Source of the DNA: a virus
Direction: 5' to 3' (one strand)
DNA: 64,000 nucleotides
Virus record (IMG/VR): IMGVR_UViG_3300047168_000018
Coordinates: 7,887-71,886 of that record
Position 1 is the stretch's first letter, and each line of letters opens with the position of its first letter. A program made the position numbers and the translations under genes. Below the pieces are notes generated by a model. It did no database searches. It was not told the origin of the DNA and saw nothing but the letters and a program-made list of their open reading frames with translations. Below, one piece after another: positions 664 through 18,115 of this stretch.

Positions 664-1524
664 GTGGCCATAACTCATGTCGAGGGAGCGTTCGAACCGG
701 AACACTTTAGCAAAGAATTCGGCTTCAGTGGATCAACGGCCGGCCAGCGCGCGCCGCGCGGTGCCCAGGAAGACGAGACGCCGGCATCAAGCAAGATTCG
801 CGGCAAGAGCGCGGTCCCATATGACGCCGACGTGGCGACGCACGGCAGCCACATGGGCGGCTTCGAGGAACACGGCAAGGGCACGATGGACTTCGCCAGG
901 GGTGGGGAAGTGCATCACCCGCACGGCCACGAGCCGATGCACGAGGAGGAACACATGGGCGGCGGCCGCAAGGTGCATCACATGCACGGCGGCCATTCGA
1001 TCCATCACCCCGACGGTCATGTGACGCATCACCATCACGACGGTTCGGAAGTGCCCGCGCATATGGCGCGCGGCGGCCACTCCGGGACGATGCACCCGCA
1101 CGGCCACCACATCACGCATACCGAGCACAAGTCCGATGGCCGGGTCATCATGCACCACGCTCACGGCGGCCATTCGGTGATGCACCCGCACGGGCACATG
1201 AGCCACCATGGCGCCGACGGTGCCCCGGCGCACATGGCGATGGGCGGCCACCACGACCCCGAGAGCGAATACGTCCACAAGGCCCGGGGCGGCCACCAGC
1301 TTGCCGGCAAGCCGCAGACCCTTCCCCGCGACATGAAGCCGGCCGGGATGCGCCACCACTCGCCAATCGAGACCGCTCCGCGCGATCCTGGCATCACCAC
1401 CACGCCGCGCAACCAGATGAGCGGCGGCGAGATGGGCTACGGCGTCGAACCCTCGGCCGAACCCGACACGGCCGGCGACGGCCAGGGCATCCCGCAGATG
1501 AGGCGCGGCGGCCACAAGCGGTAA
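664..1524 (+). CDS. His/Met/Gly-rich repeat protein punctuated by A-x-G-G motifs
   Basis: GTG start with AGGAG at 651-655; about 47 His by hand count; two ~55-aa repeats; FARGG, MARGG, MAMGG, KARGG, MRRGG. Confidence 0.85.
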   Translation: MAITHVEGAFEPEHFSKEFGFSGSTAGQRAPRGAQEDETPASSKIRGKSAVPYDADVATHGSHMGGFEEHGKGTMDFARGGEVHHPHGHEPMHEEEHMGGGRKVHHMHGGHSIHHPDGHVTHHHHDGSEVPAHMARGGHSGTMHPHGHHITHTEHKSDGRVIMHHAHGGHSVMHPHGHMSHHGADGAPAHMAMGGHHDPESEYVHKARGGHQLAGKPQTLPRDMKPAGMRHHSPIETAPRDPGITTTPRNQMSGGEMGYGVEPSAEPDTAGDGQGIPQMRRGGHKR

Positions 1525-1527
1525 GTC

Positions 1528-1806
1528 GTGAACCCCGATCTGGCGCTCGCCCAGGCAGGCACGATGCGTGTCTGGGCACAGGAATGGGAACGCAAGGCCA
1601 TCGCCGATCCGGTGATCCATGCCGGCTACGGCGAGGTCGCCCTGCTGCTGCGCCGCGCCGCCGATCAGGCGGCGAAGGCGGTCGGCCCGGCAATCCGGCA
1701 CGACATGATCGCGGAACCGTCGGCGAAGCCTGTTTTCGTCGATCATGGGATCGCGCCGACGCCGAACACCGAGTACGTCCGGCCCGACGAGGAAGCGGAC
1801 GGCTGA
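1528..1806 (+). CDS. hypothetical protein
   Basis: Fills the operon gap 3 nt after the previous stop; phage-like codon usage. Confidence 0.65.
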   Translation: MNPDLALAQAGTMRVWAQEWERKAIADPVIHAGYGEVALLLRRAADQAAKAVGPAIRHDMIAEPSAKPVFVDHGIAPTPNTEYVRPDEEADG

Positions 1807-1839
1807 CACCGCTTTGATGGTCTGATAGATAAAGGTCAC

Positions 1840-1883
1840 GGGTCGGCGCGATGCCGCTGGCTGTTCCTCCCTTGGAGCAAGCC
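1840..1883 (+). promoter_or_regulatory. leader motif copy 1 (GGCGCGATGCC hairpin plus SD-sequestering hairpin)
   Basis: GGGTCGGCGCGATGCCGCTGGCTG is 21/24 identical to 33415-33438; TGTTCC can pair with GGAGCA (SD). Confidence 0.55.
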
Positions 1884-2087
1884 ATGCCGGTCGTCAGCAA
1901 AGCGCAATCGCGGTTCTTCCATGAGATGGCCGAGCATCCCGCCGAGGCAGCGAAGCGCGGCATCAAGCCGTCGGTCACGCGCGAGTTCCTCGACGCCGAT
2001 CACGGCCGCTCGCTCAAGAACCTGCCCGATCACGTCGAGCGCAAGGCTGAAGGCGGCGCGGTCCGCCCGGTGCCGTTCAAATGGTAG
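1884..2087 (+). CDS. small phage late protein (MPxxSKAQxRF type) with KAEGG motif
   Basis: GGAG SD; MPVVSKAQSRFF..AKRGIKPSVTREFLDAD..RKAEGGAV. Confidence 0.75.
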   Translation: MPVVSKAQSRFFHEMAEHPAEAAKRGIKPSVTREFLDADHGRSLKNLPDHVERKAEGGAVRPVPFKW

Positions 2088-3211
2088 TACCGACATCGGG
2101 AACGGTCTCGACGTTCAAGGTCAACCAGACCACGATCATCAATCACGCGATGCGCCGCGCCGGCCGCGCCCCGGAAAAAGCCTCGGCCGAAGACATTCAG
2201 ATCGCGGTCGAGAGCATCAACAGCATCCTCAGTCAGTGGATCAACGCGGGCTTTCCGCTGTGGACGCGGCAGTACCTTTTGCTCGGCCCCGTCGGTGGAT
2301 CGCCCGACATCGTCCTGCCGCTCGGCACCGACGATGTGTTTCATACCTATTGGCGGGCGTTGAACCCCTGGCGGGGCGCCGCGACGCTGTCGACCGGGGC
2401 CGATGGTTCCGTGCTGTTTGCCGGCGCACCGAGCGCCGACCTGTCGATTGCCGGGCCAAACCCGTCCGTCTCGGTCTCGTTCGGTTCGGCGATAGAGGTC
2501 GACACCATTGGCGTGCTGCCAGGCGCGTCAGGCGCGCAGACGGTCGCGTTGCAGGTGCAGGTCTCGTCCGACGGGGTCAACTGGACAACGGCGCAGACCC
2601 TTCCGAGCAGCACCTACGCGGCGTCGGCCTGGACCTACTTCGATCTCGACCCGTCGATCACGGCCGCCTATGTGCGGCTGCTCAACCCGATCACCGGCGC
2701 GTGGTCGCTCAACCAACTGAATTTCGGCTTTGCGAATGCCTACGAGGTCGAGATCGGCCCGCTCAACATCGACGACTACTGGAACCTGCCCAACAAGCAA
2801 TTTCAGGGCAGCCAGCCGAACTCCGGCTATGTCGACCGGCTTCTTCCCCAGCCGATCATCAAGATTTGGCCGACGCCGAACGTGCAAGCCTTCTACAACG
2901 GCTGCGTCACGGCCCTCGTGCGCCGCTACATCCAAGATCCCGGAACGCTGACCCAGGCCATTGAAATTCCGCAACGGGCGATCGAAGCCCTGCAATGGCG
3001 GCTGGCGAACATCCTGATCTACGAACTGCCCGATCAGGACGCGGGCGGCGGCACGCAGGCGCAGGCGTCGTACTTCACGCTGATGGCGAAGCAGCAGCGC
3101 GTGCAGAACATCGCGCAAGAGGCGGCGAAAGCCGAGGCGCTGTTCTGGGCAGAGGAGCGGACCAGGGCACCCGTGCGGCTTGCGCCGAACATTTCGGCGT
3201 ACACTCGATGA
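2081..3211 (+). CDS. head-to-tail adaptor-like protein with inserted beta-sandwich domain
   Basis: TSGT..F..IINHAMRRAG..SINSILSQWINAGFPLW; YWNLPNK..G.P; IWPTP; EIPQR motifs; position in the structural operon. Confidence 0.65.
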   Translation: MVVPTSGTVSTFKVNQTTIINHAMRRAGRAPEKASAEDIQIAVESINSILSQWINAGFPLWTRQYLLLGPVGGSPDIVLPLGTDDVFHTYWRALNPWRGAATLSTGADGSVLFAGAPSADLSIAGPNPSVSVSFGSAIEVDTIGVLPGASGAQTVALQVQVSSDGVNWTTAQTLPSSTYAASAWTYFDLDPSITAAYVRLLNPITGAWSLNQLNFGFANAYEVEIGPLNIDDYWNLPNKQFQGSQPNSGYVDRLLPQPIIKIWPTPNVQAFYNGCVTALVRRYIQDPGTLTQAIEIPQRAIEALQWRLANILIYELPDQDAGGGTQAQASYFTLMAKQQRVQNIAQEAAKAEALFWAEERTRAPVRLAPNISAYTR

Positions 3212-3217
3212 ACGTCG

Positions 3218-3246
3218 TTCGCGAAAATGCTCTGGTCGGATATTAT
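3218..3246 (+). promoter_or_regulatory. putative sigma70-type promoter
   Basis: TTCGCG-N17-TATTAT in the intergenic gap. Confidence 0.4.
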
Positions 3247-3253
3247 TGCGGGA

Positions 3254-3290
3254 CGCCGGCTGCTTGGAACAGCACGGCGCCCCTGACCAC
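3254..3290 (+). repeat. hairpin element copy A (TGYT-N3-ARCA core followed by TGACCAC)
   Basis: CGCCGGCTG-cttggaa-CAGCACGGCGCC-cc-TGACCAC, nearly identical to 14809-14845 outside the loop. Confidence 0.7.
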
Positions 3291-3306
3291 ATGCGGCGGT
3301 TCTTAA

Positions 3307-3882: not shown

Positions 3883-6800
3883 AGTCGGTTCTTGCCTTTC
3901 TTGTCGCAATGGTCTGGACGATGGCGGCTTATGGACAGGCCAGCCCGACCTATCAGAGCCTGACTGTGCTTGGCACGACGACGCTGGGCGGCAACTTGGC
4001 GATGCCGAGTTGGTCGCAAACCAGCAGCGCCGATGCCGCCCTGAATATCACCACCGGCAGCAACAACAGCTTCAACCTCACGGTTACCGACCATAGCAGT
4101 GCTTTCATCGGCTATCCGATGTCGCTTTATTGGATCAACCAGAACCCAGGTTTTACCGGACCTTACGAAGGTAATTATCAGCAGTATTCTCCGCTTGCCG
4201 TTGAGGGCATAAGTTCTCCTACATCTACTGGCAATACCAGCGCGGCTAATTTTGGCGTCCGTTCGTATGGCAACAATCCATCCAGCGCCTACGATGTCGA
4301 TATCAATAATCAGTGCCTGAAATACGGGCAAAACTCGAACTGGTGCTATGTCGCGAACCTGAACGATTTCAGCGGCAGGCCTGTCCAAGCCTTCGGCAAC
4401 TGGAACGAGGAACTTGACATCATCGCAAATGGGCCAGATCCGGTCCAATGGGATTCAAGTTATGCAATGCCGCACGCCGGCGGACGCGTCGGGGAATATC
4501 TGAATTTCTCGAATCTAGACCTTAGCGGCATAAGTATTGCCGCCGGTGGCTGGGCATGGGCGGCGAACACCGCCATAAAGGCCATGGGGGTCAACAAGGC
4601 GGACTATTTCGGCGCTCAAGTGCTGAAGGTCTACAATAGCTTTATCCCATACCTCTGGTATTGCGTTACTGGCGGCACGACGGGCGGTACGGAGCCGGCT
4701 TTTCCGATCCCGGCGGAGTTTGTCGGCGCCATCGCATCCGGGACGCTGACGGTCACGAATTGGCAATCGACCTCATCGCCGATTGCCGTTGGAAATTACC
4801 TGACTTGGCAGGGCGCCAACGCGGATGGCACCGTGCTGGTAGTAGCACTGGGAACCGGCACGGGCGGAAACGGAACCTACACCGTGACAGGGGCGCCGAC
4901 GACCCTCTCGGCGGTCGGTATGTATGGTGCGCCGCACATCACCGATGGCACAGCCGTATGGGCGTTTGGCGAGAATTTTCAGGAGATTGTCAGCGCCGGA
5001 ATCTGGTTCACCGGAACGGGCGCTATCGGCACCGTGATCGGCGGTTCCAACACGATCACGAATGCCGTTCTGGACACGACGCAATTCCCGATCAGCAGCG
5101 GAGGTGCCGCAATCAGGCTGGCTCATGATCAGATCATAGACCTGACTGGTGCGGGCACCACTGCATCGCAGAACCAGCACACGCTGCGCTGGTCGTCTGC
5201 AACGGGGCCGACTGGCGGATTGGCCTACACGAACCCAGACGGGACCGTGTTCGACATTCAGGACTCCAACGACATGATGGAGGCGCAAGGGATCACGTCT
5301 CTTGCGTGGGGCGCGAAGGGCAACGTCAACGGTATCGTCACCGGCTACCGTCCCGCCGGGCTGACCGTGGGCTGGAATTTCGATGGTGGGGCCGAGACCA
5401 ACCTCATGACCAATGCAAACGGGTTTTCCGTTCACACGATCAGCGCAGGGGGCGTGCCCTCGACCTCGCCGTATTTTCAGATGAATGGGTCAGGCGTTGT
5501 TACCACGAACCTTGGCCTGACCACATTTTCGCAGAGCAGCAGCGCAGATCAGGGGTTGAACCTTTCGTCCACGGCCTATGCCCTAAACCTGTCCACTACG
5601 GCCGTCACCTCCACGGGTTTCGGAGCATATCCGCTGAATCTGCAATACACAAACAACGATCCGAACTTCACCAGCCCGAGCGGCGGGAATTATCAGCAAT
5701 ACGCGCCGCTAAAGGCACGCGGCCTAATCAGTCCTGTTGGCACCGGAAACGTGAGTGCTGCGCAATTTGAAGTAGACGATTACAGCCAAAATCCGTCTGA
5801 AAGTTACAATTATCCGGTGAACCTTATTGGAGCGAAATACGGCCAATCCTCAATGTGGGGACAGGTTAATTTTCTGATAGACAAAACAGGGCGGCCACCG
5901 CAAAACATCGCGGCCTGGAACATCGAACAGGACATAGAAGCCGATGGCGCTGACTTTACGCCGTGGGACCCGAATTACTACAAGGCGATAGCAGGTTCGC
6001 GCGTTTTCAATTTTCATTCGCTTATTACTTTGCCGCAACCCGCATGGACGGCCAATACGGCTGTCGGGCCGCTTGGTGGCACTGGCGATCAATATGTCGG
6101 CGCCAATGTTATTCAGGCTACCGTTTCCGGCACTCCGTATCTTTGGTATTGCGTGACGGCTGGCACGACCGGCTCGACGCAGCCGACATGGACGGCGCCG
6201 GTTGAGTTTACTGCGACCATCGCCAGCGGGGTTATGACGGTATCAAGCGTGACGCAGGGCACGCTTGCGGTCGGTCAATACATCACGAACCAGAACTTCA
6301 TCGTTCCGGTACAGATAACGTCGCTCGGAACCGGGACGGGCGGCGTGGGAACCTATAATCTAAGCAACAGCAGCGTTTCGGTCGCTAACTCCACCGGCAT
6401 GTATGCCGCGCCCCAGGTCGCGGATGGCACGGCGGTATGGGCGTTCGGTGAAAATGCAGCTATGTCGGTCAGCGTCGGAGACTGGTGGGGCGGCAGCAAT
6501 ACCAGCACCTCTCTTAATACCGTGATCGGCGGAACTACCAGCGTTAGTGGCGGCGTGCTGGATTGTTCGCAGTTTAATCTGTATTCGTCAAATTCGGCTT
6601 GCTTGCGCGTCGGAAGCGGCCAAAAGATCGACTTGACTGGTAACGGAACGCAGGCCGGAAACAACCAGCACACTATTTCCTATACTTCGAGTGCCCTTCA
6701 ATACACTGTTGCCGGATCGGCGGCATTAACCATCACCGATACAGGCGCCATGAGTGTTTTTGGCACCTTGGGCAACACTGGCACGGCACATTTGGCTGGC

Positions 6801-7325
6801 GGCACCGCTGCAAATTTATATGGTGTTGGTTCCGGTTACAGTTCCCGTGGCCTCACGTTTGGATACAACCTTAACAACGGCAACGAGGCCGACCTGCTGG
6901 TCGGCAGTGTCGGCGGCACCGATGGTCTGCGCATCTATGGCATTGGCGGCGGCGGCTTCCTCACGTCTAGCACTCCGCTAAGTGATCTTGACCTAAACGG
7001 AGACCTAGCCCTTTCGGGCACGCTTACCTACGTCGGTCACCAGATCAACACGCAGGTCACCGCGCCCACCGTAGCCCAATCCGGCGGCACCGGCTCCACG
7101 ACGCTCGACAGCGGCGCCACCGACACGAAGGGCACTGCCACCGAAGGAACTGCGGCCACAGGCTTCGTGGTCACGTTTCACACCGCCTACGCGACCGCGC
7201 CTGATTGCGTCGTAACCAGCCCTACCGGATCGGCACTGACCAGCTACACGCCCGCGACCGGCACGCTCACCGTCGTCAACGCCGCGCTGACCGGCGCGAA
7301 GTTCACCTATGTCTGCATCCAATAG
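3879..7325 (+). CDS. fibre/spike-like protein (1148 aa) with N-terminal signal peptide and a ~500-aa tandem duplication
   Basis: ATG 3879 is coupled to the upstream stop; MKSVLAFLVAMVWTMAAYG|QA; G/T/S/N-rich beta composition; C-terminal VTFHTAY..PDCVVT..YVC tip domain. Confidence 0.8.
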   Translation: MKSVLAFLVAMVWTMAAYGQASPTYQSLTVLGTTTLGGNLAMPSWSQTSSADAALNITTGSNNSFNLTVTDHSSAFIGYPMSLYWINQNPGFTGPYEGNYQQYSPLAVEGISSPTSTGNTSAANFGVRSYGNNPSSAYDVDINNQCLKYGQNSNWCYVANLNDFSGRPVQAFGNWNEELDIIANGPDPVQWDSSYAMPHAGGRVGEYLNFSNLDLSGISIAAGGWAWAANTAIKAMGVNKADYFGAQVLKVYNSFIPYLWYCVTGGTTGGTEPAFPIPAEFVGAIASGTLTVTNWQSTSSPIAVGNYLTWQGANADGTVLVVALGTGTGGNGTYTVTGAPTTLSAVGMYGAPHITDGTAVWAFGENFQEIVSAGIWFTGTGAIGTVIGGSNTITNAVLDTTQFPISSGGAAIRLAHDQIIDLTGAGTTASQNQHTLRWSSATGPTGGLAYTNPDGTVFDIQDSNDMMEAQGITSLAWGAKGNVNGIVTGYRPAGLTVGWNFDGGAETNLMTNANGFSVHTISAGGVPSTSPYFQMNGSGVVTTNLGLTTFSQSSSADQGLNLSSTAYALNLSTTAVTSTGFGAYPLNLQYTNNDPNFTSPSGGNYQQYAPLKARGLISPVGTGNVSAAQFEVDDYSQNPSESYNYPVNLIGAKYGQSSMWGQVNFLIDKTGRPPQNIAAWNIEQDIEADGADFTPWDPNYYKAIAGSRVFNFHSLITLPQPAWTANTAVGPLGGTGDQYVGANVIQATVSGTPYLWYCVTAGTTGSTQPTWTAPVEFTATIASGVMTVSSVTQGTLAVGQYITNQNFIVPVQITSLGTGTGGVGTYNLSNSSVSVANSTGMYAAPQVADGTAVWAFGENAAMSVSVGDWWGGSNTSTSLNTVIGGTTSVSGGVLDCSQFNLYSSNSACLRVGSGQKIDLTGNGTQAGNNQHTISYTSSALQYTVAGSAALTITDTGAMSVFGTLGNTGTAHLAGGTAANLYGVGSGYSSRGLTFGYNLNNGNEADLLVGSVGGTDGLRIYGIGGGGFLTSSTPLSDLDLNGDLALSGTLTYVGHQINTQVTAPTVAQSGGTGSTTLDSGATDTKGTATEGTAATGFVVTFHTAYATAPDCVVTSPTGSALTSYTPATGTLTVVNAALTGAKFTYVCIQ

Positions 7326-7333
7326 GAACCCCA

Positions 7334-7591
7334 ATGAACCGCCCCACCATCATCCTCGCCCTCTCCCTCATCGCAGTTCCGGCTGTGGCGCAGGAAGCGC
7401 CGCAACTGCCAGCAACGCTCACCGTGCCATCCAGGGATATGGTGACCCTGATGCACTACCTTGAGACACGTCCGCTCGGTGAGGTGGCCAGCCTCTACAG
7501 TGCGCTGTCTCAAGATGTGCAACGGTCGGTCGAGGCGCAGCGCGCGCCGCCAGCGCCGCCGCAATCTAACGTGGCACCGAAAACCCCCTGA
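7334..7591 (+). CDS. small helical protein (possible fibre chaperone) with signal peptide
   Basis: AGGA SD; MNRPTIILALSLIAVPAVA|QE; LMHYLETRPLGEVASLYSAL resembles small proteins found next to phage fibres. Confidence 0.7.
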   Translation: MNRPTIILALSLIAVPAVAQEAPQLPATLTVPSRDMVTLMHYLETRPLGEVASLYSALSQDVQRSVEAQRAPPAPPQSNVAPKTP

Positions 7592-7592
7592 C

Positions 7593-7745
7593 ATGGCCGC
7601 CCAAACCTGCAACGGTTCGACGAACGTCAGTGCGATGGCCGCTGTCACGGATGCCACGTCACCGACCTACAACGCGACACTGACTGGCGGCGGTGCTGTT
7701 CATATCCCCGTCTTCTGCAACGGCACCGCCTGGACGGCGCACTGA
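7593..7745 (+). CDS. 50-aa stand-alone fibre-tip-like module
   Basis: AVTDATSPTYNATLTGGGAVHIPVFCNGTAW; stop overlaps the next ATG. Confidence 0.55.
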   Translation: MAAQTCNGSTNVSAMAAVTDATSPTYNATLTGGGAVHIPVFCNGTAWTAH

Positions 7746-8056
7746 TGGGCGTCCCCTTCACCACGATCCTGTCGGCGGCGGTCTGGAACGCCAATGCACC
7801 TTATGCGCTGGGTGCGAGCGTGGTCCCGGTCAACATCAACGACCCGGCCCAGGTGACCCCGCAGAAGCAATTCGTGTGCATCGCGGCTGGCACGTCGGGG
7901 TCGTCGCCGCCTTCATGGACGAAATCGGACGGGACAACTGTTACGGACGGCACCGTGACGTGGCTCAACTACGGATGGTGCCTTGACTGCATCACGCCCC
8001 CGCCCAGCCAATCGCCTTATGGCGGTTTTCCGTCACCCTTTCCGCCGGTGTCCTGA
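7745..8056 (+). CDS. small virion-associated protein with a CBM5/12-like aromatic motif
   Basis: WNANAPY..FVCIAAGTSGSSPPSW..VTDGTVTW; the same motif occurs twice in the 3879 protein. Confidence 0.7.
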   Translation: MGVPFTTILSAAVWNANAPYALGASVVPVNINDPAQVTPQKQFVCIAAGTSGSSPPSWTKSDGTTVTDGTVTWLNYGWCLDCITPPPSQSPYGGFPSPFPPVS

Positions 8057-10481: not shown

Positions 10482-12049
10482 CAAAGCCTTTTTCGCTCGA
10501 CTTCCAATCCGGCATCCAGCGCGACGGCACGCAACTGGACGCCAAGCGGTGCCTGGAAGCCCTTTGGTGCAGGTGGCGGCTTCAGCGCCCCCGCAAAATG
10601 GGCGGCTTTCAGCAGATCAGCGATCAGCTAAACGGCATCCCCCGGCGGCTTCACGTCTTCTATAACAACGGCCTCAACTACGCTCACATCGGAACATCGG
10701 CCGGCATCCAGCAGGTCGTGTTCGACAACAACGGCAATTTCGTCAGCATCGCCGACCGAACGCCGACGACATTCCTCGGCGGCGTGGATGTCGGCTTTAC
10801 CTTCGATGCGATCTTCGACACGACAAGCGGTGTCGTTCAGCTGGTCGGACACTCGGTTCCCGATCTCGGAAACTTGTCGTCGAGTATCCAGACCGTGCCT
10901 TTCATTGGCGACATCACATCGGTTACCCCGCTTTCGCCCTTCAGCAATCCGGGCACGATCCCGAGCGGGACGTGGATACAGCCATCGGTCGCCGGCGGTA
11001 TCGTCTGCGTCCAACCGTTCGTGTTCGACTTTGATTCGAGTGGCCTTGTGCAATGGTCGGCCCCCAACCTTCCCCTGTATCTCGGGGTGACGGGAGGCGA
11101 GACCGGCGCGGGGCAGGCCCGAATTTCGGCGCAGAAGATTGTCGCCGGGACAGCACTTCGCGGCGGCGGCGTTCAAAGCCCGGCGGCTTTGTTCTGGTCG
11201 CTGTCGGAAGTCATCACCGCAACCTATGTCGGCACGCCCGCGTGGTTTGCTTTCAACACGATCTCGCCGTCGTCCTCGATCATTTCAAGCGATGCGGTGA
11301 TCGAGTATGACGGGCTCTATTTCTGGTGCGGCATCGACCGCTGGCTGGTGTTCAACGGCACCGTCACCGAAGTTCCGAACAACCAGAATCAGGACTGGTT
11401 CTTCGACAACCTGACGCCTGGCTACGAGTCCCGCACCTTCGCCTTCAAGGTGCCGCGCTACGGCGAAATCTGGTGGTGTGCGTGCATGTTCGGCGCGACC
11501 GAGCCGAATTACGCGGTGATCTACAATCTGCGCGAGAACGCTTGGTACGACACGCAGCTGCCGGGATCTGGAAGGGGGGCCGGGTATTTCGCCCAGGGCT
11601 TCCGCTATCCCCTCATGTGCGGGCTGGACCCGGGACCGCAGGGCTACTCGCTGTGGATGCACGAGGTCGGCACCGATCAGGTCGCGGGGAATACGCGATC
11701 CGCGGTGCGCAGCTACTTCGAGACGCCCTGGTTCGGGGGGCCGGTCGACAATCCCCCTGACGATAGAGGGCTTCAGTTCGCGGAGTTCGAGCCCGACATC
11801 ATCCAATCGGGAGACCTGTCCTGCTATCTCATCGGGGCGGCAAACGCCCGGGCGCAGCAGAACTCCGGGCCATCCGTTCCCATCGTCGCCGTGCCCTCCG
11901 GGCCGGCCGAGCAGTTCGCTTCGTTCACCCCGACACAGTCCCAACGGCTGACCCGGATGCACGTCGAGTCGAACGTCGTCGGGGGCAACTACATCATCGG
12001 ACGGGGAATCGGCCACGGAGCGCCGGCCGAGGCGCGGATCAAGGGGTAA
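10478..12049 (+). CDS. tail nozzle / tail tubular protein B-like (P22 gp10-like)
   Basis: GIQRDGT; RPRKMGG; VIEYDGLYFWCG.DR; KVPRYGEIWW; AVIYNLRENAWYD; size and position. Confidence 0.7.
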   Translation: MTKPFSLDFQSGIQRDGTQLDAKRCLEALWCRWRLQRPRKMGGFQQISDQLNGIPRRLHVFYNNGLNYAHIGTSAGIQQVVFDNNGNFVSIADRTPTTFLGGVDVGFTFDAIFDTTSGVVQLVGHSVPDLGNLSSSIQTVPFIGDITSVTPLSPFSNPGTIPSGTWIQPSVAGGIVCVQPFVFDFDSSGLVQWSAPNLPLYLGVTGGETGAGQARISAQKIVAGTALRGGGVQSPAALFWSLSEVITATYVGTPAWFAFNTISPSSSIISSDAVIEYDGLYFWCGIDRWLVFNGTVTEVPNNQNQDWFFDNLTPGYESRTFAFKVPRYGEIWWCACMFGATEPNYAVIYNLRENAWYDTQLPGSGRGAGYFAQGFRYPLMCGLDPGPQGYSLWMHEVGTDQVAGNTRSAVRSYFETPWFGGPVDNPPDDRGLQFAEFEPDIIQSGDLSCYLIGAANARAQQNSGPSVPIVAVPSGPAEQFASFTPTQSQRLTRMHVESNVVGGNYIIGRGIGHGAPAEARIKG

Positions 12050-12288
12050 TGCTCGTCATCGACCCGCGATTTCTCGACGTGATCCGCTGGACGGCAGAGA
12101 CCGGGGCGCAACTGGCTTCCTACGGCACGATCGGGCGGCTGCTCAACCCCGACGGCTGGCGCGAGTGGGGGCAGGGGGTTGTGTCGATCCCGGCCGTGCA
12201 GGCGTTGAACCCGCCCGAGCCGTCGCGGTATCCGGTCTGGTCGGATTGGGCGCTTGCCTTGAACCAGACCCTTGTGCATCTGGCGTAG
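12049..12288 (+). CDS. small Trp-rich virion protein
   Basis: Coupled start; GWREWG..PEPSRYPVWSDWA. Confidence 0.7.
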   Translation: MLVIDPRFLDVIRWTAETGAQLASYGTIGRLLNPDGWREWGQGVVSIPAVQALNPPEPSRYPVWSDWALALNQTLVHLA

Positions 12289-12350
12289 CCCCTTCCGTTT
12301 TCGGTTCAACCGATGATAATGTGCCCTGGCGTTGGCCCTGGGCGGTCGGC

Positions 12351-12371
12351 GGGACGTGTTCGCAACACTCC
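12351..12371 (+). repeat. hairpin element copy C (GTGTT-CGC-AACAC)
   Basis: Same TGYT-N3-ARCA core; about 35 nt downstream of TGATAAT (extended -10-like). Confidence 0.45.
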
Positions 12372-12410
12372 TGGCCGGGGACCGTCGTGCAATCCACCGA
12401 CTTCAAGGGC

Positions 12411-12623
12411 ATGGTCGACGCCGCCATCACCGGCTCGAAGCGCCGGATGGCAAGGGGCGGCAAGGTCAAGAAACCGAACCTGACCGTCATCATCATGGCC
12501 CCGCCGCCAATTCCCGGCCCGGCAATGCAGCAGCGTCCCCTGCCCCCGCACATCCCGATCCTCGGCGCCCTGGCGCACGCGGTCATCATGCACCACGCCG
12601 CCCGCAAGCTGGCCCGGCGATGA
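12411..12623 (+). CDS. small basic/Pro-rich protein with MARGGKV motif (alternative start 12447)
   Basis: RRMARGGKVKK..ILGALAH; stop overlaps the GNAT start. Confidence 0.55.
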   Translation: MVDAAITGSKRRMARGGKVKKPNLTVIIMAPPPIPGPAMQQRPLPPHIPILGALAHAVIMHHAARKLARR

Positions 12624-13417
12624 GCCATATCGGCATCCGCCCCCCGAACGGGGCGGCCCTGGTTCGACGGGTCGGCCCCGAGGCGGCGACGCGGGTCAAT
12701 GAGATCGTGAACGATCCTGCGGTCCGCCCGTGGCTGGCGAACGACGACGACGGCGTCATAGACATGGGCGTCGCCCTGGCGCATCCCGGCAACGTCATGC
12801 TGCTCGGGGAACACGGCGGCTGCCTGTTCTTCTGGCTGGGCGGCGATGGCCGATACGAGGTCCACACCTTCGTTCTTCCGGCCGGCCGGGGCGCCTGGAC
12901 CCGCGCGATGACGGAGGCGGTGCTCTGGTACATGTTTACCCGCACCGATTGCCGGGAAGTGCTGACCCGCGTTCCCGCCCCCCATGCCGCCGCAAAGGCC
13001 GCAACGGTTGCCGTTGGGATGCAATTCCAGTTCTCCGAACCCGGCGGCGTGATCTTCCGCAACCACCGCGTCGACCTCGACATTTATTCGATCACGCTTG
13101 AGGACTGGATACTCGGGGCGCCGTTCCTGCCCGAAGCCGGGCAATGGCTGCACAACCGGATGGCGCAGGAGGCCAAGCGCCTCGGCCTGACCGACGAGCC
13201 GCACGAGGACAGCCCGGCGCACAACCGCTTTGTCGGGGCGGCTTTCGAGATGGCGAGGCACGGACAGCTTGCGAAGGCGGTCGGCACCTACAACCGCTGG
13301 GCCGTCGTCGTCCGCCACGCGACAATCGAAATCGCCTCGAACAATCCGCCGGCGGTGAAGTTCGACATCGGCCTTCTCGTGATCCGACGGGATGACATCG
13401 AAGTGGTGCCAACGTGA
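12620..13417 (+). CDS. GNAT-fold acyltransferase-like protein preceding the ejection proteins
   Basis: YEVHTFVLPAGRG..WYMF..VLTRVP..AVGMQF; position analogous to T7 gp13. Confidence 0.65.
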   Translation: MSHIGIRPPNGAALVRRVGPEAATRVNEIVNDPAVRPWLANDDDGVIDMGVALAHPGNVMLLGEHGGCLFFWLGGDGRYEVHTFVLPAGRGAWTRAMTEAVLWYMFTRTDCREVLTRVPAPHAAAKAATVAVGMQFQFSEPGGVIFRNHRVDLDIYSITLEDWILGAPFLPEAGQWLHNRMAQEAKRLGLTDEPHEDSPAHNRFVGAAFEMARHGQLAKAVGTYNRWAVVVRHATIEIASNNPPAVKFDIGLLVIRRDDIEVVPT

Positions 13418-14748
13418 GGTTCGTCCACACCTTCAACGGCTTCGATCAGCAGCACGAATCGCCGGGGCTTTGCAGTTTTGGCATCACCGAGGCGATCGGC
13501 GGCATCATCGCTGGCGTTGCCGCAAGTGCGGGCGCCAGCGCGGCGGCGGCGGGCGTAATCGGCACCGTTGGCACTGGCGCGCTCCTCGGGGCGGGTGCCG
13601 GCGCCGTCGGGAGCGCCCTCACGGGCGGCAAGCCCCTTGTCGGCGCACTCACCGGCGGTTTGACCGGCGGCGTCACGGGGGGCTTGGCGGGGCCGGTTTC
13701 GGGCGCGCTGGGCATCAGCCAGGGTGCCGCCGGCGCGCTGGTCGGCGGCGTTACCGATGCGGGACTCGGTGCCATCACCAACCCGCAGAATCCGCTCGGC
13801 GGCGCGCTGTCCGGTGGCCTGACGGGGGCGGCAACAGGCTATGGCCTGGGCAACTCGGGGCTGTTCAATGCCGCGACCGACCCGGCGGCAATCAGCAATT
13901 CCATCTCGTCGAGCCTGGGTGCCGGCGGCAACAGCAGCTTCATGGACGGTGGTGGCGGCGGCCCGCTTACCGACCCCGCATCGCAAATGGGTGCCGGCAC
14001 ATCGAATCTGGCGGTGAACTCCGCAGCGGCCGCAAGCGGTTCGGTGCCGGCCGCAAGCAATCTCGGCAACGCGAGCGCCGGCAGCAACAACGGCAGCGGG
14101 ACCGGCCTGTTCGGCGGCAAGATCAGCAACACGTCGCTCCTGCTCGGCGCACTGTCCGCCGCCGGCAGCCTGTTCAACAAGCCGCAGCAATCCCAAGCCG
14201 GCCTCACGGCGCAGCAGCTTGCAGCCATCCAGCAGCAGCAGGGCGCGCTCTACAACACCCCGCTCAACACCAACGTGCCAGGCCGCACCGCCGTCGCGCC
14301 GAATTACACGACGCCGACCGCACCGACGACGCCCGCGCAGCTGGGCAACCCGAACTCGTGGTACACCTATGGGTCGCGGCCCGAAGCGACGTTCTTTACG
14401 AACAATAATTTGCAGGCGTACGGTTGGGCCAAAGGCGGGGCGCTCAGCGGAGAGTTCTCGACACGCGGAACGGGATCGCGCCAAGTCCGCGGCCCGGGCA
14501 CGGGGGTGTCTGATGACGTGCCCGCTCGCCTCTCCAATGGCGAATACGTCCTGACAGCGGCGGACGTGAGTCGCATCGGTTCGCCGAAAAACCCGAGTGC
14601 CCCTGGCGCCAATGATCGCGGGGCGCGGATTCTGGATAAGGACCGGGCGGCACTTGCCCGGCTGGTGGGCCAGAGGCAATACGAACCGAGGAAGTCGAAG
14701 GTTTCGATCAACGAGAGTTCGATCACGCATCGCGGGCGCGCGGCATGA
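13414..14748 (+). CDS. ejection/internal virion protein 1 (Gly/Ala-rich hydrophobic N-half)
   Basis: Glycine-zipper-like helices; C-terminal WAKGG..VRGPGTGVSDDVPARLSNGEYVL domain. Confidence 0.75.
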   Translation: MRFVHTFNGFDQQHESPGLCSFGITEAIGGIIAGVAASAGASAAAAGVIGTVGTGALLGAGAGAVGSALTGGKPLVGALTGGLTGGVTGGLAGPVSGALGISQGAAGALVGGVTDAGLGAITNPQNPLGGALSGGLTGAATGYGLGNSGLFNAATDPAAISNSISSSLGAGGNSSFMDGGGGGPLTDPASQMGAGTSNLAVNSAAAASGSVPAASNLGNASAGSNNGSGTGLFGGKISNTSLLLGALSAAGSLFNKPQQSQAGLTAQQLAAIQQQQGALYNTPLNTNVPGRTAVAPNYTTPTAPTTPAQLGNPNSWYTYGSRPEATFFTNNNLQAYGWAKGGALSGEFSTRGTGSRQVRGPGTGVSDDVPARLSNGEYVLTAADVSRIGSPKNPSAPGANDRGARILDKDRAALARLVGQRQYEPRKSKVSINESSITHRGRAA

Positions 14749-14808
14749 GCGCGCTTCAGGTTCAATCGCCTGTTTTCGTTCCATTCTACGTTTGGCATAA
14801 TGACGAGG

Positions 14809-14845
14809 CGCCGGCTGTTACCAGCAGCACGGCGCCTCTGACCAC
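14809..14845 (+). repeat. hairpin element copy B upstream of the GIY-YIG gene
   Basis: CGCCGGCTG-ttaccag-CAGCACGGCGCC-tc-TGACCAC, preceded by CATAAT. Confidence 0.7.
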
Positions 14846-14864
14846 TTCACGAGTAAGGGGCTCG

Positions 14865-15704
14865 ATGATGGCTGACCCAGACCTAGCCGTGCGCGTGTCC
14901 GTCTACAAGGTAACGCACATCGAAACCGGACGCTCGTACATCGGGATCACGCGGCAGCAGCCGGCAAAGCGGTGGCGCCAGCACGGATGGGACGCGAATA
15001 ATCCCGACCGCTGCAAAGCGCCGCTTCATCGCGCGATCCTGAAATACGGCCAGGACGCATTTGCGTTTGAGGTCATTTTTGTGGCTTTCGGCGAAGACGC
15101 CGGACGCCTGCTTGAGCGCGATTTCATCGCCTCGCACAACACGATGCGTCCGCATGGTTTTAATCTGACCAGTGGCGGCGAGATGCTGTCCGGCACAAAG
15201 CGATCCGAGGAGGCGAATGCCAACAATCGGGCCGCGCGCCTCGGCAAGGTGATGCCGTCTGAGGTCCGGGCGAAGATCAGCGCCGCACTCAAAGGGCGCC
15301 CCAAGACACCAGAGCATGCGGCAGCGGCCGGAAGGGCGCAGATCGGCAGGCGTCAGTCCGACGAGACCCGCCGAAAAGTCAGCATCGCGATGAAGGCTCT
15401 GTGGATGGACCCGGCCGAAAAAGCGGGCCTCCTTGAGCGCGCTCGCCTTGCTGGTCCAAATATCAGCGCAGGTAAAAAGCGCGCATGGGCCGACCCCGAA
15501 TTTCGGGAGCGCATGAAGACTTGCGTTAAACCACCGCGGGTCAGTGAGGAATCGCGACGCAAAGCAGCAGCGGCTCTCAAAATCCGGTGGGCGGAACCGG
15601 GCTACCGAGAAATGATGGCGGCTGCGCGCGATAACTCGCCAAAAGTCAAAGCGTTTCGTAGCAGAAGCCGGAACGAAAAAGTGTCCGGTGAGGGCGATTC
15701 ATGA
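14865..15704 (+). CDS. GIY-YIG homing endonuclease with NUMOD3-like repeats
   Basis: SVYKVTH..SYIGIT..RW.QH; FNLTSGGE; repeated S.E.R.K.S.A motifs. Confidence 0.85.
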   Translation: MMADPDLAVRVSVYKVTHIETGRSYIGITRQQPAKRWRQHGWDANNPDRCKAPLHRAILKYGQDAFAFEVIFVAFGEDAGRLLERDFIASHNTMRPHGFNLTSGGEMLSGTKRSEEANANNRAARLGKVMPSEVRAKISAALKGRPKTPEHAAAAGRAQIGRRQSDETRRKVSIAMKALWMDPAEKAGLLERARLAGPNISAGKKRAWADPEFRERMKTCVKPPRVSEESRRKAAAALKIRWAEPGYREMMAAARDNSPKVKAFRSRSRNEKVSGEGDS

Positions 15705-16726
15705 GCGGTGCCCTCTCCTCGATCTTTTCTGGGCAGCCCACGCCCGCCCAGCCGACCGAGAGCGATACCCAAACGAACTCGCCTCTCTGGATGCAGCAGT
15801 ATCTCGCGAACATCGCGAACGCTGCAACCAACCTTGCTGGCACTCAATATACACCGTTTCCCGGACCTACCGTTGCTTCCCCGTCCGCCGCGACGCAGCA
15901 GTCGTGGCAGATGGCGCTCAACAATGTGGGCAGCTACCAGCCGGACCTGACGCAGGCGCAGAACCTGATTCAGCAGGGGTCTGCGCCGCTCACGGCGGCT
16001 TCGATCAACTCGTATATGTCGCCGTACATGGGCGATGTCGTCGGTGCGCTTCAGAGCGCGTCGAACACGAATTTCCAGCAAAACCAGATGCCGGCGATCT
16101 CGTCGCAGTTCGTCGGCGCGGGGCAGGCGGCGTCGCCGCAGATGGCGCAGGCCGACAACAACGCCCTCTATCAGAACAACCAAGCTTTGGATCAGGCGGT
16201 CTCGGGGGCACTTCAGTCGGGCTACACGCAGGCGACGCAGACCGCAGAACAGCAGCAGCAGAACGCGCTGACAGCGGGGAGCCAGTACGGGCAGCTTGGC
16301 GCGCTTCAGAGCCAGCTTGGCGCGCTGGATGTCGGGCAGGTTGCGGCGGCGGGCGCTGGTCAGGACACCTACAACCAGTCGAACATCAACGCGGCGCTGA
16401 ACAATTTCTATGCGCAGCAGCAGTGGCCGTATCAGAACTTGGCCTATGCCTCGAACATCATCCGGGGTCAGAACGTGCCGTCGAACACGATGACGGTCGG
16501 GACGCAGTACACGCCGAATACGTCCTACACGGCGTCGCCGCTGTCGGCGTTCGTCGGCACGACCCTGGGGGCTGCGTCGCTCGGCTCGAACAACAATTCC
16601 AGTTCGAGCAGCAATTCCAATTCGAGCAGCGGCCTGAGCAGCCTGTTTTCCGGCAGCGGCGGCCAGGCCCGTGGCGGTCACATCCGTCCGAAAGGCGCGT
16701 TGCAGCACTTCAAGCGGGCGGCGTAA
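15701..16726 (+). CDS. ejection/DNA-transfer protein 2 (Gln/Ala-rich)
   Basis: P.W.QQY..YTPFPGPTVA; YMSPY; QQQWPYQNLAYASNIIRG; C-terminal QARGGHI. Confidence 0.75.
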   Translation: MSGALSSIFSGQPTPAQPTESDTQTNSPLWMQQYLANIANAATNLAGTQYTPFPGPTVASPSAATQQSWQMALNNVGSYQPDLTQAQNLIQQGSAPLTAASINSYMSPYMGDVVGALQSASNTNFQQNQMPAISSQFVGAGQAASPQMAQADNNALYQNNQALDQAVSGALQSGYTQATQTAEQQQQNALTAGSQYGQLGALQSQLGALDVGQVAAAGAGQDTYNQSNINAALNNFYAQQQWPYQNLAYASNIIRGQNVPSNTMTVGTQYTPNTSYTASPLSAFVGTTLGAASLGSNNNSSSSSNSNSSSGLSSLFSGSGGQARGGHIRPKGALQHFKRAA

Positions 16727-18115
16727 GTGGCCGGCGCGCTGTCGGGCCGGTATCGCTTTGCCGACGGGGGAGGCGCGGGGACGGACCAGCCGTTCACGCC
16801 GGGCTACGGCACCTACGCAGCCTCGACGAACCCGAACGCGGTCAACGACCCCTATGCAGCAATCTCAATCGCTGCAAACCCGCCGCCGCTTCAGGACAAT
16901 CAGGCGGCAGCCGATCAACTGGCGTTCGGGCAAAGCCTGCGCGGCCAGGGATCGCCGACGCAGCAGTATGAGGCTCTGAGGGGCCAGCGCGATGCTGCGG
17001 CCGCGCAGAAGGCGAAGTCGATTCAGGACGCGATGGCGATCCTGCAAGCGGGGAAAAACAGCCAGACGACGAGCCTGCCGATGCTTGCCGCCGCAGGGGC
17101 GATGCTGGCGCCGACGCGAACCGGCGCGTTCACGGAATCGCTTGGCAATGCCTTCTCGGCGGCGGGTCCGGCAATTGCTCGCCAGCGCCAGGAGGATTGG
17201 CAGCAGAACGAGGCGCAGGCAAACCTTGGCGTCGAGGCCGGCAGTATTCCCTTGCAGGTCTCGTCCGAGGACATGCAGGATTTTTGGAAGCGGATGCAGC
17301 TTGCCGAGCAGGCGCAGCAGGGCGCGGCGCTCGTCGGCGGCAGGACGCAGGTTTCCCAGGTCAATGCGCAAGCGAAGGGTGACGCCGCTGCAAAGGCGGC
17401 GCAGGCGCACATTCAGGCGGCGATTATTCAGGGGGGCGCTCGCGTCGACGGCGCGACAATCGCGGCCAACCGGAAAGCGTGGGAGTACAAAGGCCCTGAT
17501 CCGTCAACCCTGGACAAGGACGGCAACCCGACGCCGAACACGCAGGGCCTTTATTGGAACTCGACCACCAACACGATGAACTATGGACCGCTTCTTGATC
17601 CAGACTCGGATTCTGGAAAAGCCGCAGCAAAGCAGTCCGTCAAGATCAATGCCGCCCGTGCCTTGATGGCGGACGCAAAGCAAAATGGCCGCACCCTGTC
17701 GCTGACTGACGCATGGGCGATGGTGAACACGGGCGTCAACAGCGACACCGCCTATCAGAAGCTGCTGAATGACCGAATGAAGGTCATTCAAGCCAACCTG
17801 AAAAACTCGAGCCTGAGCAGCGATGAAATCAGGGCGATGGCGCGCAAGCAGCTTATGGAGGGGCCGCCGCCGAAAGTTGCCCCCGACGCGACGGCATCGC
17901 CAAGCCCGTCTGGGGCATCCCCAACTGCGCCCGCCGCACCCGCAGCCGCACCAGCCGCCCCCCCCGCTCCGACGCGCGCTGGCACGACGGCACCGATCAC
18001 CACCGAGGACCATGTGGACCCGGTAACGGGCCAAGTGAAGGCACGCTTCGATCCCGTCAAGCGGGTGTGGTACGACCCGGTTACGGGCAAAGAATACCCG
18101 CCGGCAGGACAGTAG
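16727..18115 (+). CDS. ejection/internal virion protein 3 (helical)
   Basis: Abuts both neighbours; N-terminal RFADGG; MLAPTRTGAFTESLGNA. Confidence 0.7.
   Translation: MAGALSGRYRFADGGGAGTDQPFTPGYGTYAASTNPNAVNDPYAAISIAANPPPLQDNQAAADQLAFGQSLRGQGSPTQQYEALRGQRDAAAAQKAKSIQDAMAILQAGKNSQTTSLPMLAAAGAMLAPTRTGAFTESLGNAFSAAGPAIARQRQEDWQQNEAQANLGVEAGSIPLQVSSEDMQDFWKRMQLAEQAQQGAALVGGRTQVSQVNAQAKGDAAAKAAQAHIQAAIIQGGARVDGATIAANRKAWEYKGPDPSTLDKDGNPTPNTQGLYWNSTTNTMNYGPLLDPDSDSGKAAAKQSVKINAARALMADAKQNGRTLSLTDAWAMVNTGVNSDTAYQKLLNDRMKVIQANLKNSSLSSDEIRAMARKQLMEGPPPKVAPDATASPSPSGASPTAPAAPAAAPAAPPAPTRAGTTAPITTEDHVDPVTGQVKARFDPVKRVWYDPVTGKEYPPAGQ

Follow-up and report, generated by a model that had tools for sequence, protein, structure and literature searches.

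A conserved Ala-x-Gly-Gly motif in late proteins of a podophage recurs as the flanking joint of a tape-measure protein module

Why would a set of otherwise unrelated late proteins in one podophage carry the same short string, Ala-x-Gly-Gly (AxGG)? The string recurs across one end of a 64,000-nt stretch of DNA (the window), positions 7,887 to 71,886 of the virus record IMGVR_UViG_3300047168_000018, the whole metagenomic contig of this uncultured phage being 71,886 bp and 76% complete. A preliminary description of the window proposed that it is a tag that routes cargo into the head or marks it for cleavage. Each instance listed there is present in the translations, and the His-rich protein has a further copy, HAHGGHS, that had gone without mention. 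Six more instances were found in the translation of a paralogue upstream of the window. The genes, including that of a protein resembling tape-measure proteins (TMPs), and the motif copies are as follows, in window coordinates unless stated.

Contig 6381-7679, outside the window: upstream paralogue of the His-rich protein, 432 aa, basic
664..1524, + strand: His-rich late protein, 286 aa with 47 His, five AxGG copies and a C-terminal MRRGG
nt 892-912: FARGGEV, His-rich protein
nt 1063-1083: MARGGHS, His-rich protein
nt 1156-1176: HAHGGHS, His-rich protein
nt 1234-1254: MAMGGHH, His-rich protein
nt 1279-1299: KARGGHQ, His-rich protein
nt 1498-1518: MRRGGHK, His-rich protein
1851..2087, + strand: small virion protein of 78 aa; KAEGGAV lies 7 residues from the C-end (nt 2043-2063)
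12411..12623, + strand: small ORF, 70 aa from the first ATG, start uncertain; MARGGKV lies near the N-end (nt 12447-12467)
13414..14748, + strand: ejection protein 1, TMP-like, with WAKGGAL at nt 14425-14445, the module core GPGTGVSDDVPARLSNGEYV at nt 14491-14550 and the C-terminus RAA
14745-15704: GIY-YIG homing endonuclease between the genes for ejection proteins 1 and 2, correcting the earlier annotation
15701..16726, + strand: ejection protein 2, 341 aa; QARGGHI (nt 16664-16684) lies 13 residues from the C-end and is followed by KGALQHFKRAA
16727..18115, + strand: ejection protein 3, 462 aa; FADGGGA (nt 16757-16777) begins at residue 11
18116..33370, + strand: giant virion protein, 5,084 aa, with SLT, InPase, Eco57I-like methylase, intein and SNF2/helicase C domains

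The reading frame of the small ORF at 12411..12623 is supported by a GC3 frame plot from ~12300 to 12600. The motif-bearing genes sit between the head and tail modules and adjoin the ejection-protein genes. The 1851..2087 protein matches phrog_16759 and phrog_25121, both labelled 'virion structural protein', and ejection protein 2 matches phrog_4287, a 'DNA ejection protein'. Gene order and these PHROG labels suggest that the motif-bearing late proteins are packaged or ejected. In the His-rich protein and its upstream paralogue the motif is repeated internally at intervals of 30-70 residues.

The AxGG strings represent a single short conserved motif, [FYKRM]-A-x-G-G-x-[VIL]. In the form [FYKR]-A-x-G-G-x-[VI] it is the flank, here called the joint, of a module of ~55 residues, GxGTGxSDxIPAxLSNGEYV...FAxGGxV. 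With residues 330-420 of ejection protein 1 as the phmmer query, the module was found in 1,886 representative proteins, mostly giant TMPs, in agreement with the proposed tie between the motif and the GPGTG...LSNGEYV element of TMPs. Pfam scans of seven module-bearing proteins returned no family covering the module. Of the 150 best foreign matches, 139 supplied the 300 modules in which flanks were counted. Gly-Gly lies exactly 5 residues before the core in 276 of the 300, and Ala two residues before Gly-Gly in 239. Ala is most often preceded by F (105), Y (52), K (38) or R (28), and V (140) or I (131) stands two residues after Gly-Gly. Within the 50 residues downstream, Gly-Gly recurs in 265 modules, in 161 of them as AxGG, the downstream FAxGGxV of the module being spaced 17-40 residues after the core. 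AlphaFold2 gave the module no autonomous fold (pLDDT 59-60, flanks under 50). This lends no support to the idea that the joint is read by the GPGTG domain and counts neither way.

In TMPs the modules flank lysozyme, SLT, M23 and HAD domains. Carriers include TMP_3 and PhageMin_Tail proteins of long-tailed phages and gpH of phage lambda. Like the present phage, multi-module giant TMPs (Pfam TMP_3 or PhageMin_Tail with lysozyme, SLT or M23 cassettes) have the core and its flanks, in 2-6 copies per protein. Their joints are internal, between cassettes of one polypeptide, whereas those of the present phage are mostly free, at the ends of separate gene products. The carriers are the TMPs of long-tailed phages and the TMP-like ejection proteins of short-tailed phages, all of them exported from the virion before the DNA. 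In this podophage, which has an adaptor of the SU10 type, ejection protein 1 holds the core. Free joints, close to one end or internally repeated, are found in six or more further late proteins, which are presumably internal or ejected. We are highly confident that the motif is real and part of the TMP module. A literature search by full text and term look-up, which was not exhaustive, found no printed description of it.

Ejection protein 1 scores 41.7 bits against the module HMM. Its core, GxGxGxSD...A.LS.GE[FY]V, spans residues 360-379, and residues 355-391 are matched by TMP PHROGs. A Gly/Ala-rich hydrophobic stretch at the N-terminal side (residues ~16-130) lies upstream of the joint at 338-344. 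The joint had been described as directly preceding the GPGTG core; 15 residues separate WAKGGAL and GPGTG. WAKGGAL scores below the threshold of the matrix described below, the protein does not have Gly-Gly exactly 5 residues before the core as in the canonical upstream flank, and the downstream FAxGGxV is missing from its end, which reads ...THRGRAA. In its podophage family the flank is likewise degenerate (...SRQVRGPGTG) and a conserved [FW]AxGG lies ~20 residues upstream. AxGG is retained in 21 of 24 aligned rows of short matches to ejection protein 1, a count that includes one unrelated two-module protein and the entry of the query itself. The Caulobacter phage GB2A protein gp065c has the canonical upstream flank, as MARGGYAVKGPGTG, and the C-end YMDGGRV.

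We compared motif counts in the 58 proteins of the contig (18,895 residues) with those in shuffled proteins. Plain A.GG occurs 33 times with 22.7 expected, and 31 of 1000 within-protein shuffles reach 33. Seven motif proteins, a set chosen post hoc, have 17 copies with 5.1 expected, and the remaining 51 proteins have 16 with 17.8 expected. We also scored the proteins with an eight-column matrix whose training set was 533 flanks, all of them taken from long TMP-like proteins of foreign origin. At a lenient threshold, the 10th percentile of those training flanks, there are 19 matches against 7.6 in shuffles (maximum 17 in 300), and 14 of them, of the matrix-defined form [KGRH][FYKR]A x GG x [VI], fall in six late proteins. 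At a score of 10 or above there are nine against 1.63 (maximum 6 in 500). Four of the nine are in the upstream paralogue; the others are in the His-rich protein (four matches at 6.7 or above, one at 10 or above), the 1851-2087 protein (14.3), the 12411-12623 ORF (12.1), ejection protein 2 (11.1) and ejection protein 3 (13.5). The giant protein has four weak matches, none reaching 10. No match of 10 or above is found in the adaptor, nozzle or early proteins, where the motif had not been noticed in that context, nor in the fibre. Enrichment over a shuffled background holds with the foreign-trained matrix and is weak for plain A.GG.

The motif is also conserved in homologues. In a relative (L004/G001) with proteins 40-65% identical overall, it is at the same places in five of six homologues. 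The His-rich homologue has multiple AHGG/MAMGG/MKRGG copies, KHKAEGGSV occupies the same place in the homologue of the 1851-2087 protein, QPMARGGRAKA is found in a small ORF, the counterpart of 12411-12623, and the ejection protein 2 homologue has the C-end HAKGGRIRARRRATGGALGTRLAMAA. The homologue of ejection protein 3 in the relative's genome (L091) starts MSGALHRS...RARRYAGGGGV, with a matrix score of 13.3. In the ejection protein 1 homologue only the Gly-Gly is kept (WKHGG). At least one copy is present in all 17 members of the upstream paralogue's family and at least two in 16 of them. The motif is missing from the GB2A homologues of both ejection protein 2 and ejection protein 3, so phages of this group can do without the free copies.

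Free copies are also found beyond this group. The 1,053 non-module ORFs of 80 other module-bearing IMG/VR loci have 81 strong free copies with 27.4 expected, about a threefold excess. Their density is highest, 3.41 per 10,000 residues, in same-strand ORFs downstream of the module gene, versus 1.87 upstream. The last 30 residues of the ORF hold 27 of the 81 and the first 30 hold five. Several lie 2-8 residues from the stop, such as ...VYAEGGLVE and ...GYAEGGAVE. The mild genome-wide excess of A.GG could be due to chance or follow from a Gly/Ala-rich composition and from internal repeats, and the His-rich copies belong to one internal repeat and are therefore not independent. The externally trained matrix, the positions conserved in diverged relatives and the enrichment repeated in 80 unrelated loci argue strongly against this reading, which we regard as hardly credible. 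Matrix enrichment and positional conservation together indicate a real, selected tag common to otherwise unrelated late proteins, as first proposed.

The TMPs of lambda and T5 have been known for about 50 years to be cut during tail assembly. The T5 TMP, pb2 (1,219 aa), has a single matrix site, PRAEGGMM at 1126-1133. Mass spectrometry placed the pb2 cleavage after R1127, according to Linares et al. 2023. The cut falls inside this site, directly before the Ala of AEGG. The bond is one of seven in the 8-mer, out of 1,218 in the protein, a coincidence of ~0.6% by chance. The suggested link to proteolysis is supported in one experimentally mapped case. There is no profile-level similarity between pb2 and the module: with E values up to 1000 allowed, the module HMM still does not report it. 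The T5 link is therefore through the 8-residue motif alone. Like ejection protein 1, pb2 (cut to pb2* and pb2C) has a hydrophobic stretch followed by an AxGG site and is expelled ahead of the DNA. Unlike it, pb2 belongs to the tail of a siphophage instead of being an ejection protein packaged in the head, and the canonical GxGTGxSD...LSNGEYV core is missing from it.

In lambda gpH, a variant of the whole module occupies 732-785 with both flanks, FATGG...GEFVF...YATGGYV. It scores 9.6 bits against the module HMM, a modest homology, and S-D and LSN are missing from its core. The module comes after a Gly-rich hydrophobic stretch, just as it does in ejection protein 1. gpH is cut to gpH* and gpHC, with cleavage site and catalyst unknown according to a 2025 paper (PMC12617516). 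The module is inside the unresolved N-part of gpHC, near the cleavage. Cuts before A707, A718 and A734 would give computed fragments of 14.85, 14.05 and 12.52 kDa, and gpHC is reported there as roughly 14 kDa. A gpHC of ~14 kDa implies a cut within ~30 residues of the gpH joints.

How these joints work can be read in several ways. T4 uses a capsid-targeting sequence that its prohead protease removes, and small-hydrophobic / x / Gly / Gly patterns resemble the sites of Gly-Gly-specific proteases. Like the T4 sequence and the double-glycine leaders cut by C39 peptidases, the motif is a short peptide common to unrelated cargo, and the leaders also contain Gly-Gly. Those signals are N-terminal leaders, each read by its own protease from a nearby gene; here, neither such a placement nor such a protease was found. 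A sequence that routes cargo into the prohead would suit the position of the genes beside the ejection-protein genes and the N-terminal-side copies in 12411-12623 and ejection protein 3. Its free copies are mostly C-terminal or internal, though, as the five of 81 in the first 30 residues illustrate, and a search confined to the Peptidase_S78 family found no prohead protease in the 76%-complete contig. Tails of long-tailed phages assemble separately from heads, and since the motif is native to tail TMPs (TMP_3, PhageMin_Tail and lambda gpH), the proposed capsid targeting is unsupported and, in our view, exceedingly unlikely. A C39, JAB/DUB-like or zincin protease might instead cut after Gly-Gly. 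In favour of this are the residue pattern, the lambda tail operon protein gpK (NlpC/P60, and a partial match to Prok-JAB that at 23.3 bits falls short of the cut-off of 25) and two HExxH strings in the giant protein, at residues 3964 and 4467. The only mapped cut, that of T5, precedes Ala, four residues upstream of the bond after Gly-Gly, and there is no N-terminal leader architecture, the N-proximal copies being confined to the two proteins just named. The 71,886-bp, 76%-complete contig gave no C39 match (PF03412, E up to 1), and Pfam scans found no peptidase family in it, and no zincin or other peptidase match in the giant protein. The single JAB (PF14464) match, 14.4 bits with a cut-off of 25, is a charged helix in a terminase-small-subunit-like ORF. 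With neither C39 nor a credible JAB or S78, this part of the original proposal is very unlikely to be correct.

The motif flanks the TMP module and lies at T5's own cut, so a processing or assembly joint is more likely than a head-targeting tag. Our best explanation, offered tentatively, is that the joint is a maturation boundary in exported proteins. The joints would be flexible boundaries at which proteins may be matured by a cut just N-terminal of Ala, as in T5 pb2; alternatively, they may become natural gene termini once the machine is split into separate genes. Giant TMP polyproteins and sets of podophage ejection proteins would then be two formats of one apparatus. Ejection protein 1 shares the T5 and lambda arrangement, a hydrophobic Gly-rich stretch and then the joint. 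Several observations count against a maturation joint: the mapped cleavage site is a single one, that of T5, in a protein without profile-level similarity to the module; scans of the 76%-complete contig found no protease family; the GB2A homologues of two ejection proteins do without the motif; and many free copies are 2-15 residues from the C-end. A cut at such copies removes few residues, and a docking tail therefore fits them better than a cleavage site. The free [FY]AxGGx[VI] copies might instead stay uncut and act as short terminal peptides that order ejectosome assembly or exit by attaching to the module core, to the portal or tail channel, or to another ejection protein, the T5 cut beside AEGG reflecting merely an exposed linker. 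The third of strong free copies in the last 30 residues, the strand-like alternation of aromatic, small, Gly-Gly and branched-hydrophobic residues, and a module that may fold upon binding all suit docking. T7 gp16, described in a review as a 'molecular tape' stitching gp15 (PMC8954989), provides a precedent, as an extended segment of one ejection protein organizes another after ejection; no Gly-Gly motif is mentioned there. However, the internal repeats of the His-rich protein and its paralogue are odd for a terminal tail, and docking does not account for the coincidence of the single T5 site with the cut. We consider docking possible, though somewhat less likely than a maturation boundary.

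It is even conceivable, though unlikely, that [FYKR]-A-x-G-G-x-[VI] is a general 'exit code' of proteins that pass the tail channel before the DNA. In TMP polyproteins it would direct assembly-triggered cuts before Ala that need no dedicated phage protease, and in podophages it would form the ends of separate ejection proteins and zip them together in the ejectosome. Lambda gpHC would then start at A707, A718 or A734, and ejection proteins 1-3 would be trimmed or joined at their AxGG sites.

The joint coincides with the sole mapped TMP cut, sits in the lambda cleavage region and recurs at the ends of podophage ejection proteins. For these reasons, so widespread a joint could address the question of the lambda cleavage site and catalyst, and it gives residues to mutate and masses to look for. 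The module described here is new to Pfam, and the motif may be used in annotation to flag ejected proteins in uncultured phages. It would also link the rulers of long tails and the ejection proteins of short tails as one family of exported machinery.

The window covers bases 7887-71886 of an IMG/VR virus contig of 71,886 bp, estimated to be 76% complete, and G+C across the window is about 64%. Domain and PHROG matches place a late operon on the plus strand from 1 to 33,370, which includes the following genes.

Genes of the late operon (window coordinates)
8056-8724, plus strand: SU10-type adaptor (Pfam PF24175, 7.5e-23)
8721-10481, plus strand: fibre (sequence matches)
10478-12049, plus strand: "virion structural protein", called the nozzle in the preliminary description (sequence matches)
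13414-14748, plus strand: ejection protein 1, tape-measure-like (sequence matches)
14745-15704, plus strand: GIY-YIG/NUMOD3 homing endonuclease, between ejection proteins 1 and 2 (domain match)
15701-16726, plus strand: ejection protein 2 (phrog_4287, "DNA ejection protein")
16727-18115, plus strand: ejection protein 3, 462 aa
18116-33370, plus strand: giant protein, 5,084 aa, with SLT, InPase, Eco57I-like methylase, putative intein and helicase parts

The nearest named phages are the Caulobacter phages GB2A, RW, RLK and KcrB, with 38% identity in the 10478-12049 protein and a common gene order. A closer uncultured relative (L004/G001) is 50-65% identical. A literature search on the Caulobacter relatives, aimed at virion proteomics, returned nothing usable. 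Besides the gene at 14745-15704, a second free-standing homing endonuclease gene (EndoVII/HNH, contig 3926-4618, outside the window) is inserted in the late operon, directly after the major capsid gene; L004 likewise carries one between ejection proteins 1 and 2. Within the giant protein, LAGLIDADG and Hom_end matches at about 26942-27163, just upstream of the SNF2/helicase C part, look like an intein, and local G+C falls to 0.60. The large fibre-like protein at 3951-7325 lies in a lower-G+C stretch (0.57), and several hundred of its residues are duplicated internally, with ...YLWYCVT.GTTG.T.P... and ...DGTAVWAFGEN... each present twice. Residues 127-203 of the late protein at 2081-3211 form an F5/8 type C (discoidin-like) domain, kept in GB2A, L004, L005 and L007. 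On the minus strand, a 218-aa ORF (41106-41762) matches ribosome modulation factor PF04957 at residues 113-162 (E 1e-5), its 25.9 bits just below the cut-off of 27.9.

All the AxGG strings that the preliminary description had named in the late proteins are present in the translations, with an additional HAHGG in the His-rich protein (664-1524). Further copies (RARGG, RATGG, RAMGG, MARGG, KAMGG and YAQGG, plus MKKGG) occur in an upstream 432-aa basic protein (contig 6381-7679, outside the window), which has the N-terminal string FSKDFGFSGS in common with the His-rich protein. Genome-wide, plain A.GG shows mild enrichment only, with 33 occurrences in all 58 called proteins versus 22.7 expected (31 of 1000 shuffles reach 33); outside the motif set, the remaining 51 proteins have it 16 times versus 17.8 expected. 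As the seven proteins of that set were picked after looking, a motif definition from outside the contig was needed. The His-rich protein itself has 47 His among 286 residues, in repeats of the type HHPxGHxxHHHxDG, which points to an internal protein that binds metal; the L004 homologue is His-rich as well.

Residues 330-420 of ejection protein 1 were searched with phmmer against 1.84 billion representative proteins (E up to 0.001). The 1,886 proteins matched are mostly 1,000-6,000 residues long with 2-6 matched stretches. Seven module-bearing proteins were scanned with Pfam: four have TMP_3 or PhageMin_Tail, the module stretches are separated by lysozyme, SLT, M23 or HAD domains, and no family covers the stretches themselves. 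A LysM-like identity, suggested by the pattern GE[FY]V..A....L...N, found no Pfam LysM match in the seven at E up to 0.01. Among the best 150 of the 1,886 matches, a regular expression located the core 300 times, in 139 proteins. In 276 of these 300 modules a Gly-Gly precedes the core by exactly 5 residues, and in 239 Ala stands two positions before the Gly-Gly; that Ala follows F in 105, Y in 52, K in 38 and R in 28. Two positions beyond the Gly-Gly comes V in 140 modules and I in 131. Downstream of the core, 265 modules have another Gly-Gly no more than 50 residues away, mostly at 17-40, as AxGG in 161 and preceded by F in 155. The module unit is therefore [FY]AxGGx[VI]-x-GxGTGxSDxIPAxLSNGE[FY]V-(about 25 residues)-FAxGGxV, and the A-x-G-G of the preliminary description is the flank, or joint, of a module from tape-measure proteins (TMPs).

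Tail tape-measure proteins assemble apart from heads. Because they are the main habitat of the motif, a head-targeting role is unlikely; of the preliminary proposal, the functional tag in common is supported and the direction of proteins to the capsid is not.

An 8-column matrix was trained on 533 flanks from long foreign proteins only. At a lenient threshold, passed by 90% of the training sites, the 58 contig proteins have 19 hits versus 7.6 in shuffles; at a score of 10 or more they have 9 versus 1.63, and none of 500 shuffles gave more than 6. Four of these nine strong sites are in the upstream paralogue and one is in the His-rich protein, with the others in the 1851-2087 and 12411-12623 proteins and in ejection proteins 2 and 3. 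At this score there are none in the adaptor, fibre, 10478-12049, lysis and early proteins, and the four hits in the giant protein are all weak. In the module HMM ranking of the contig's own proteins, ejection protein 1 is directly followed by 12411-12623, the His-rich protein, 1851-2087 and ejection proteins 2 and 3; these five all align to the C-terminal flank.

The motif is also found in the homologues from the uncultured relative.

AxGG and related strings in L004/G001
1851-2087 homologue: KHKAEGGSV near the C-end
small ORF: QPMARGGRAKA
His-rich homologue: many AHGG/MAMGG/MKRGG copies
ejection protein 1 homologue: Gly-Gly only (WKHGG)
ejection protein 2 homologue: two copies (HAKGGRIRARRRATGG) at the C-end
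ejection protein 3 homologue: RYAGGGGV at residue 21

Short matches aligned with ejection protein 1 have [FWYL]AxGG in 21 of 24 rows and Gly-Gly at the same column in 23; one of the rows is the entry of the query itself and another is an unrelated protein with two modules. In the upstream paralogue family, every one of the 17 members has a matrix hit and 16 have two or more; the last copy always adjoins the conserved C-terminal domain. Counting against conservation, the GB2A homologues of ejection proteins 2 and 3 are without the motif, which in that phage is found only in the TMP-like gp065c (NMARGGYAVKGPGTG..., C-end YMDGGRV). The motif is real, conserved and common to these proteins and TMP modules.

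The upstream paralogue family (contig 6381-7679; proteins P0152-P0168) has a conserved N-end, MAI[RK]H...EFGF[ST]GSA, then 1-6 basic AxGG repeats and the C-terminal domain ...ERHALPxSDFALPGxRYPIxDxxHARNALARV.... Pfam gave no match for this family, its sole PHROG match is phrog_16160 (unknown function), and an ESM Atlas search with the upstream paralogue gave a best score of 0.77 and no lead. Ejection proteins 1 and 2 have a second end-motif in common, both terminating in ...RAA (14736-14748; 16715-16726). Their L004 counterparts end in KRAA and AMAA, and in the 24-row alignment with ejection protein 1 an AA terminus is seen in 13 rows, often as GALSxxxxRAA. The start x-x-GAL is common to ejection protein 3 and its homologue. 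The GAL string that had been remarked on beside AxGG is real, since these GALSxxxxRAA ends and x-x-GAL starts recur.

We also examined other viral loci. A pattern scan of IMG/VR gave 541 module relatives, from which 80 loci were kept and ORFs called greedily by length. With the 77 ORFs matching the module HMM set aside, the remaining 1,053 ORFs (311,823 residues) have 81 hits at a score of 10 or more versus 27.4 in shuffles, spread over 49 of the 80 loci; part of these are conserved cores of other proteins rather than free tags, for example ...LNLADGGNILAFF... and ...SATGGIV.LHPY.... The last 30 residues hold 27 of the hits, the first 30 hold 5, and 49 are elsewhere. Downstream of the module gene, same-strand ORFs up to 9 kb away have the highest density (46 hits, 3.41 per 10,000 residues, versus 1.87 upstream; three loci without a module ORF dropped). 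The motif is enriched at the ends of proteins encoded beside the module gene. Successive proteins ending ...[FY]AxGGx[VI] downstream of a TMP-like gene are therefore a recurring short-tailed phage design and no quirk of this contig.

The TMP of phage T5, pb2, translated from its GenBank record, has a single matrix hit in 1,219 residues, PRAEGGMM at 1126-1133. The maturation cut as described by Linares et al. 2023, after R1127, is the bond immediately N-terminal of the Ala in this string, so that motif and cut coincide; the chance of this by position alone is about 0.6%. As the module HMM detects no similarity in pb2, the link is a single motif-level data point. PRAEGG is kept in all 120 listed of 426 pb2 matches, which at 95-100% identity over the queried C-terminal region are too close to inform. 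In lambda gpH, residues 732-785 are a module variant that has both flanks (end-to-end HMM alignment, 9.6 bits). The 2025 account in PMC12617516 has a C-terminal peptide of about 14 kDa cleaved from a glycine-rich region, states the site and catalyst as unknown, and gives residues ~690-817 as structurally unresolved. Cuts before A707, A718 and A734 would release gpHC of 14.85, 14.05 and 12.52 kDa. For P22 gp7 (L090, 9369-10058), the record describes removal of the first 20 residues by host OpdA; this cut, ...SYPE|KGGKGGAD, is beside a double Gly-Gly yet is not an AxGG motif and falls below the matrix threshold. A literature search for the motif or other mapped TMP cuts found nothing further.

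Cleavage after Gly-Gly by a C39-type peptidase, also proposed in the preliminary description, fits poorly, as the sole mapped cut precedes Ala and searches of the contig, estimated at 76% complete, found no C39, Peptidase_S78 or credible JAB domain. No called protein matches a Pfam peptidase; two HExxH strings occur in the giant protein. The joints may instead be maturation boundaries, which is the best reading although we hold it tentatively. That they are docking strands for ejectosome assembly is somewhat less likely, and the two readings are mutually compatible.

Structure prediction and searches gave little on either. AlphaFold2 models of the C-terminal 145 residues of ejection protein 1 (22 homologues; mean pLDDT 60.4, motif and core region below 50) and of the canonical 65-residue module (38 rows; pLDDT 58.9, two short helices only) are too poor for a fold search. 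A complex prediction with three module copies scored 0.03 (mark 0.42), no verdict either way. A PDB sequence search with ejection protein 1 had no match, and the module profile retrieved the TMPs of mycobacteriophage Douge (8zdo/8zdq) and JBD30 (8rk3). The module is unseen in these because, by their papers, only the last 42 and 33 residues are modelled; for pb2, Linares et al. 2023 model only the last 35. In the structures found by profile, and those of lambda and T5, the module is not visible.

Gene order and PHROG labels suggest that the motif-bearing proteins of this contig are packaged and ejected. If the joints are maturation boundaries, the known TMP maturation region would extend to podophage ejection proteins, which have free copies at their ends.
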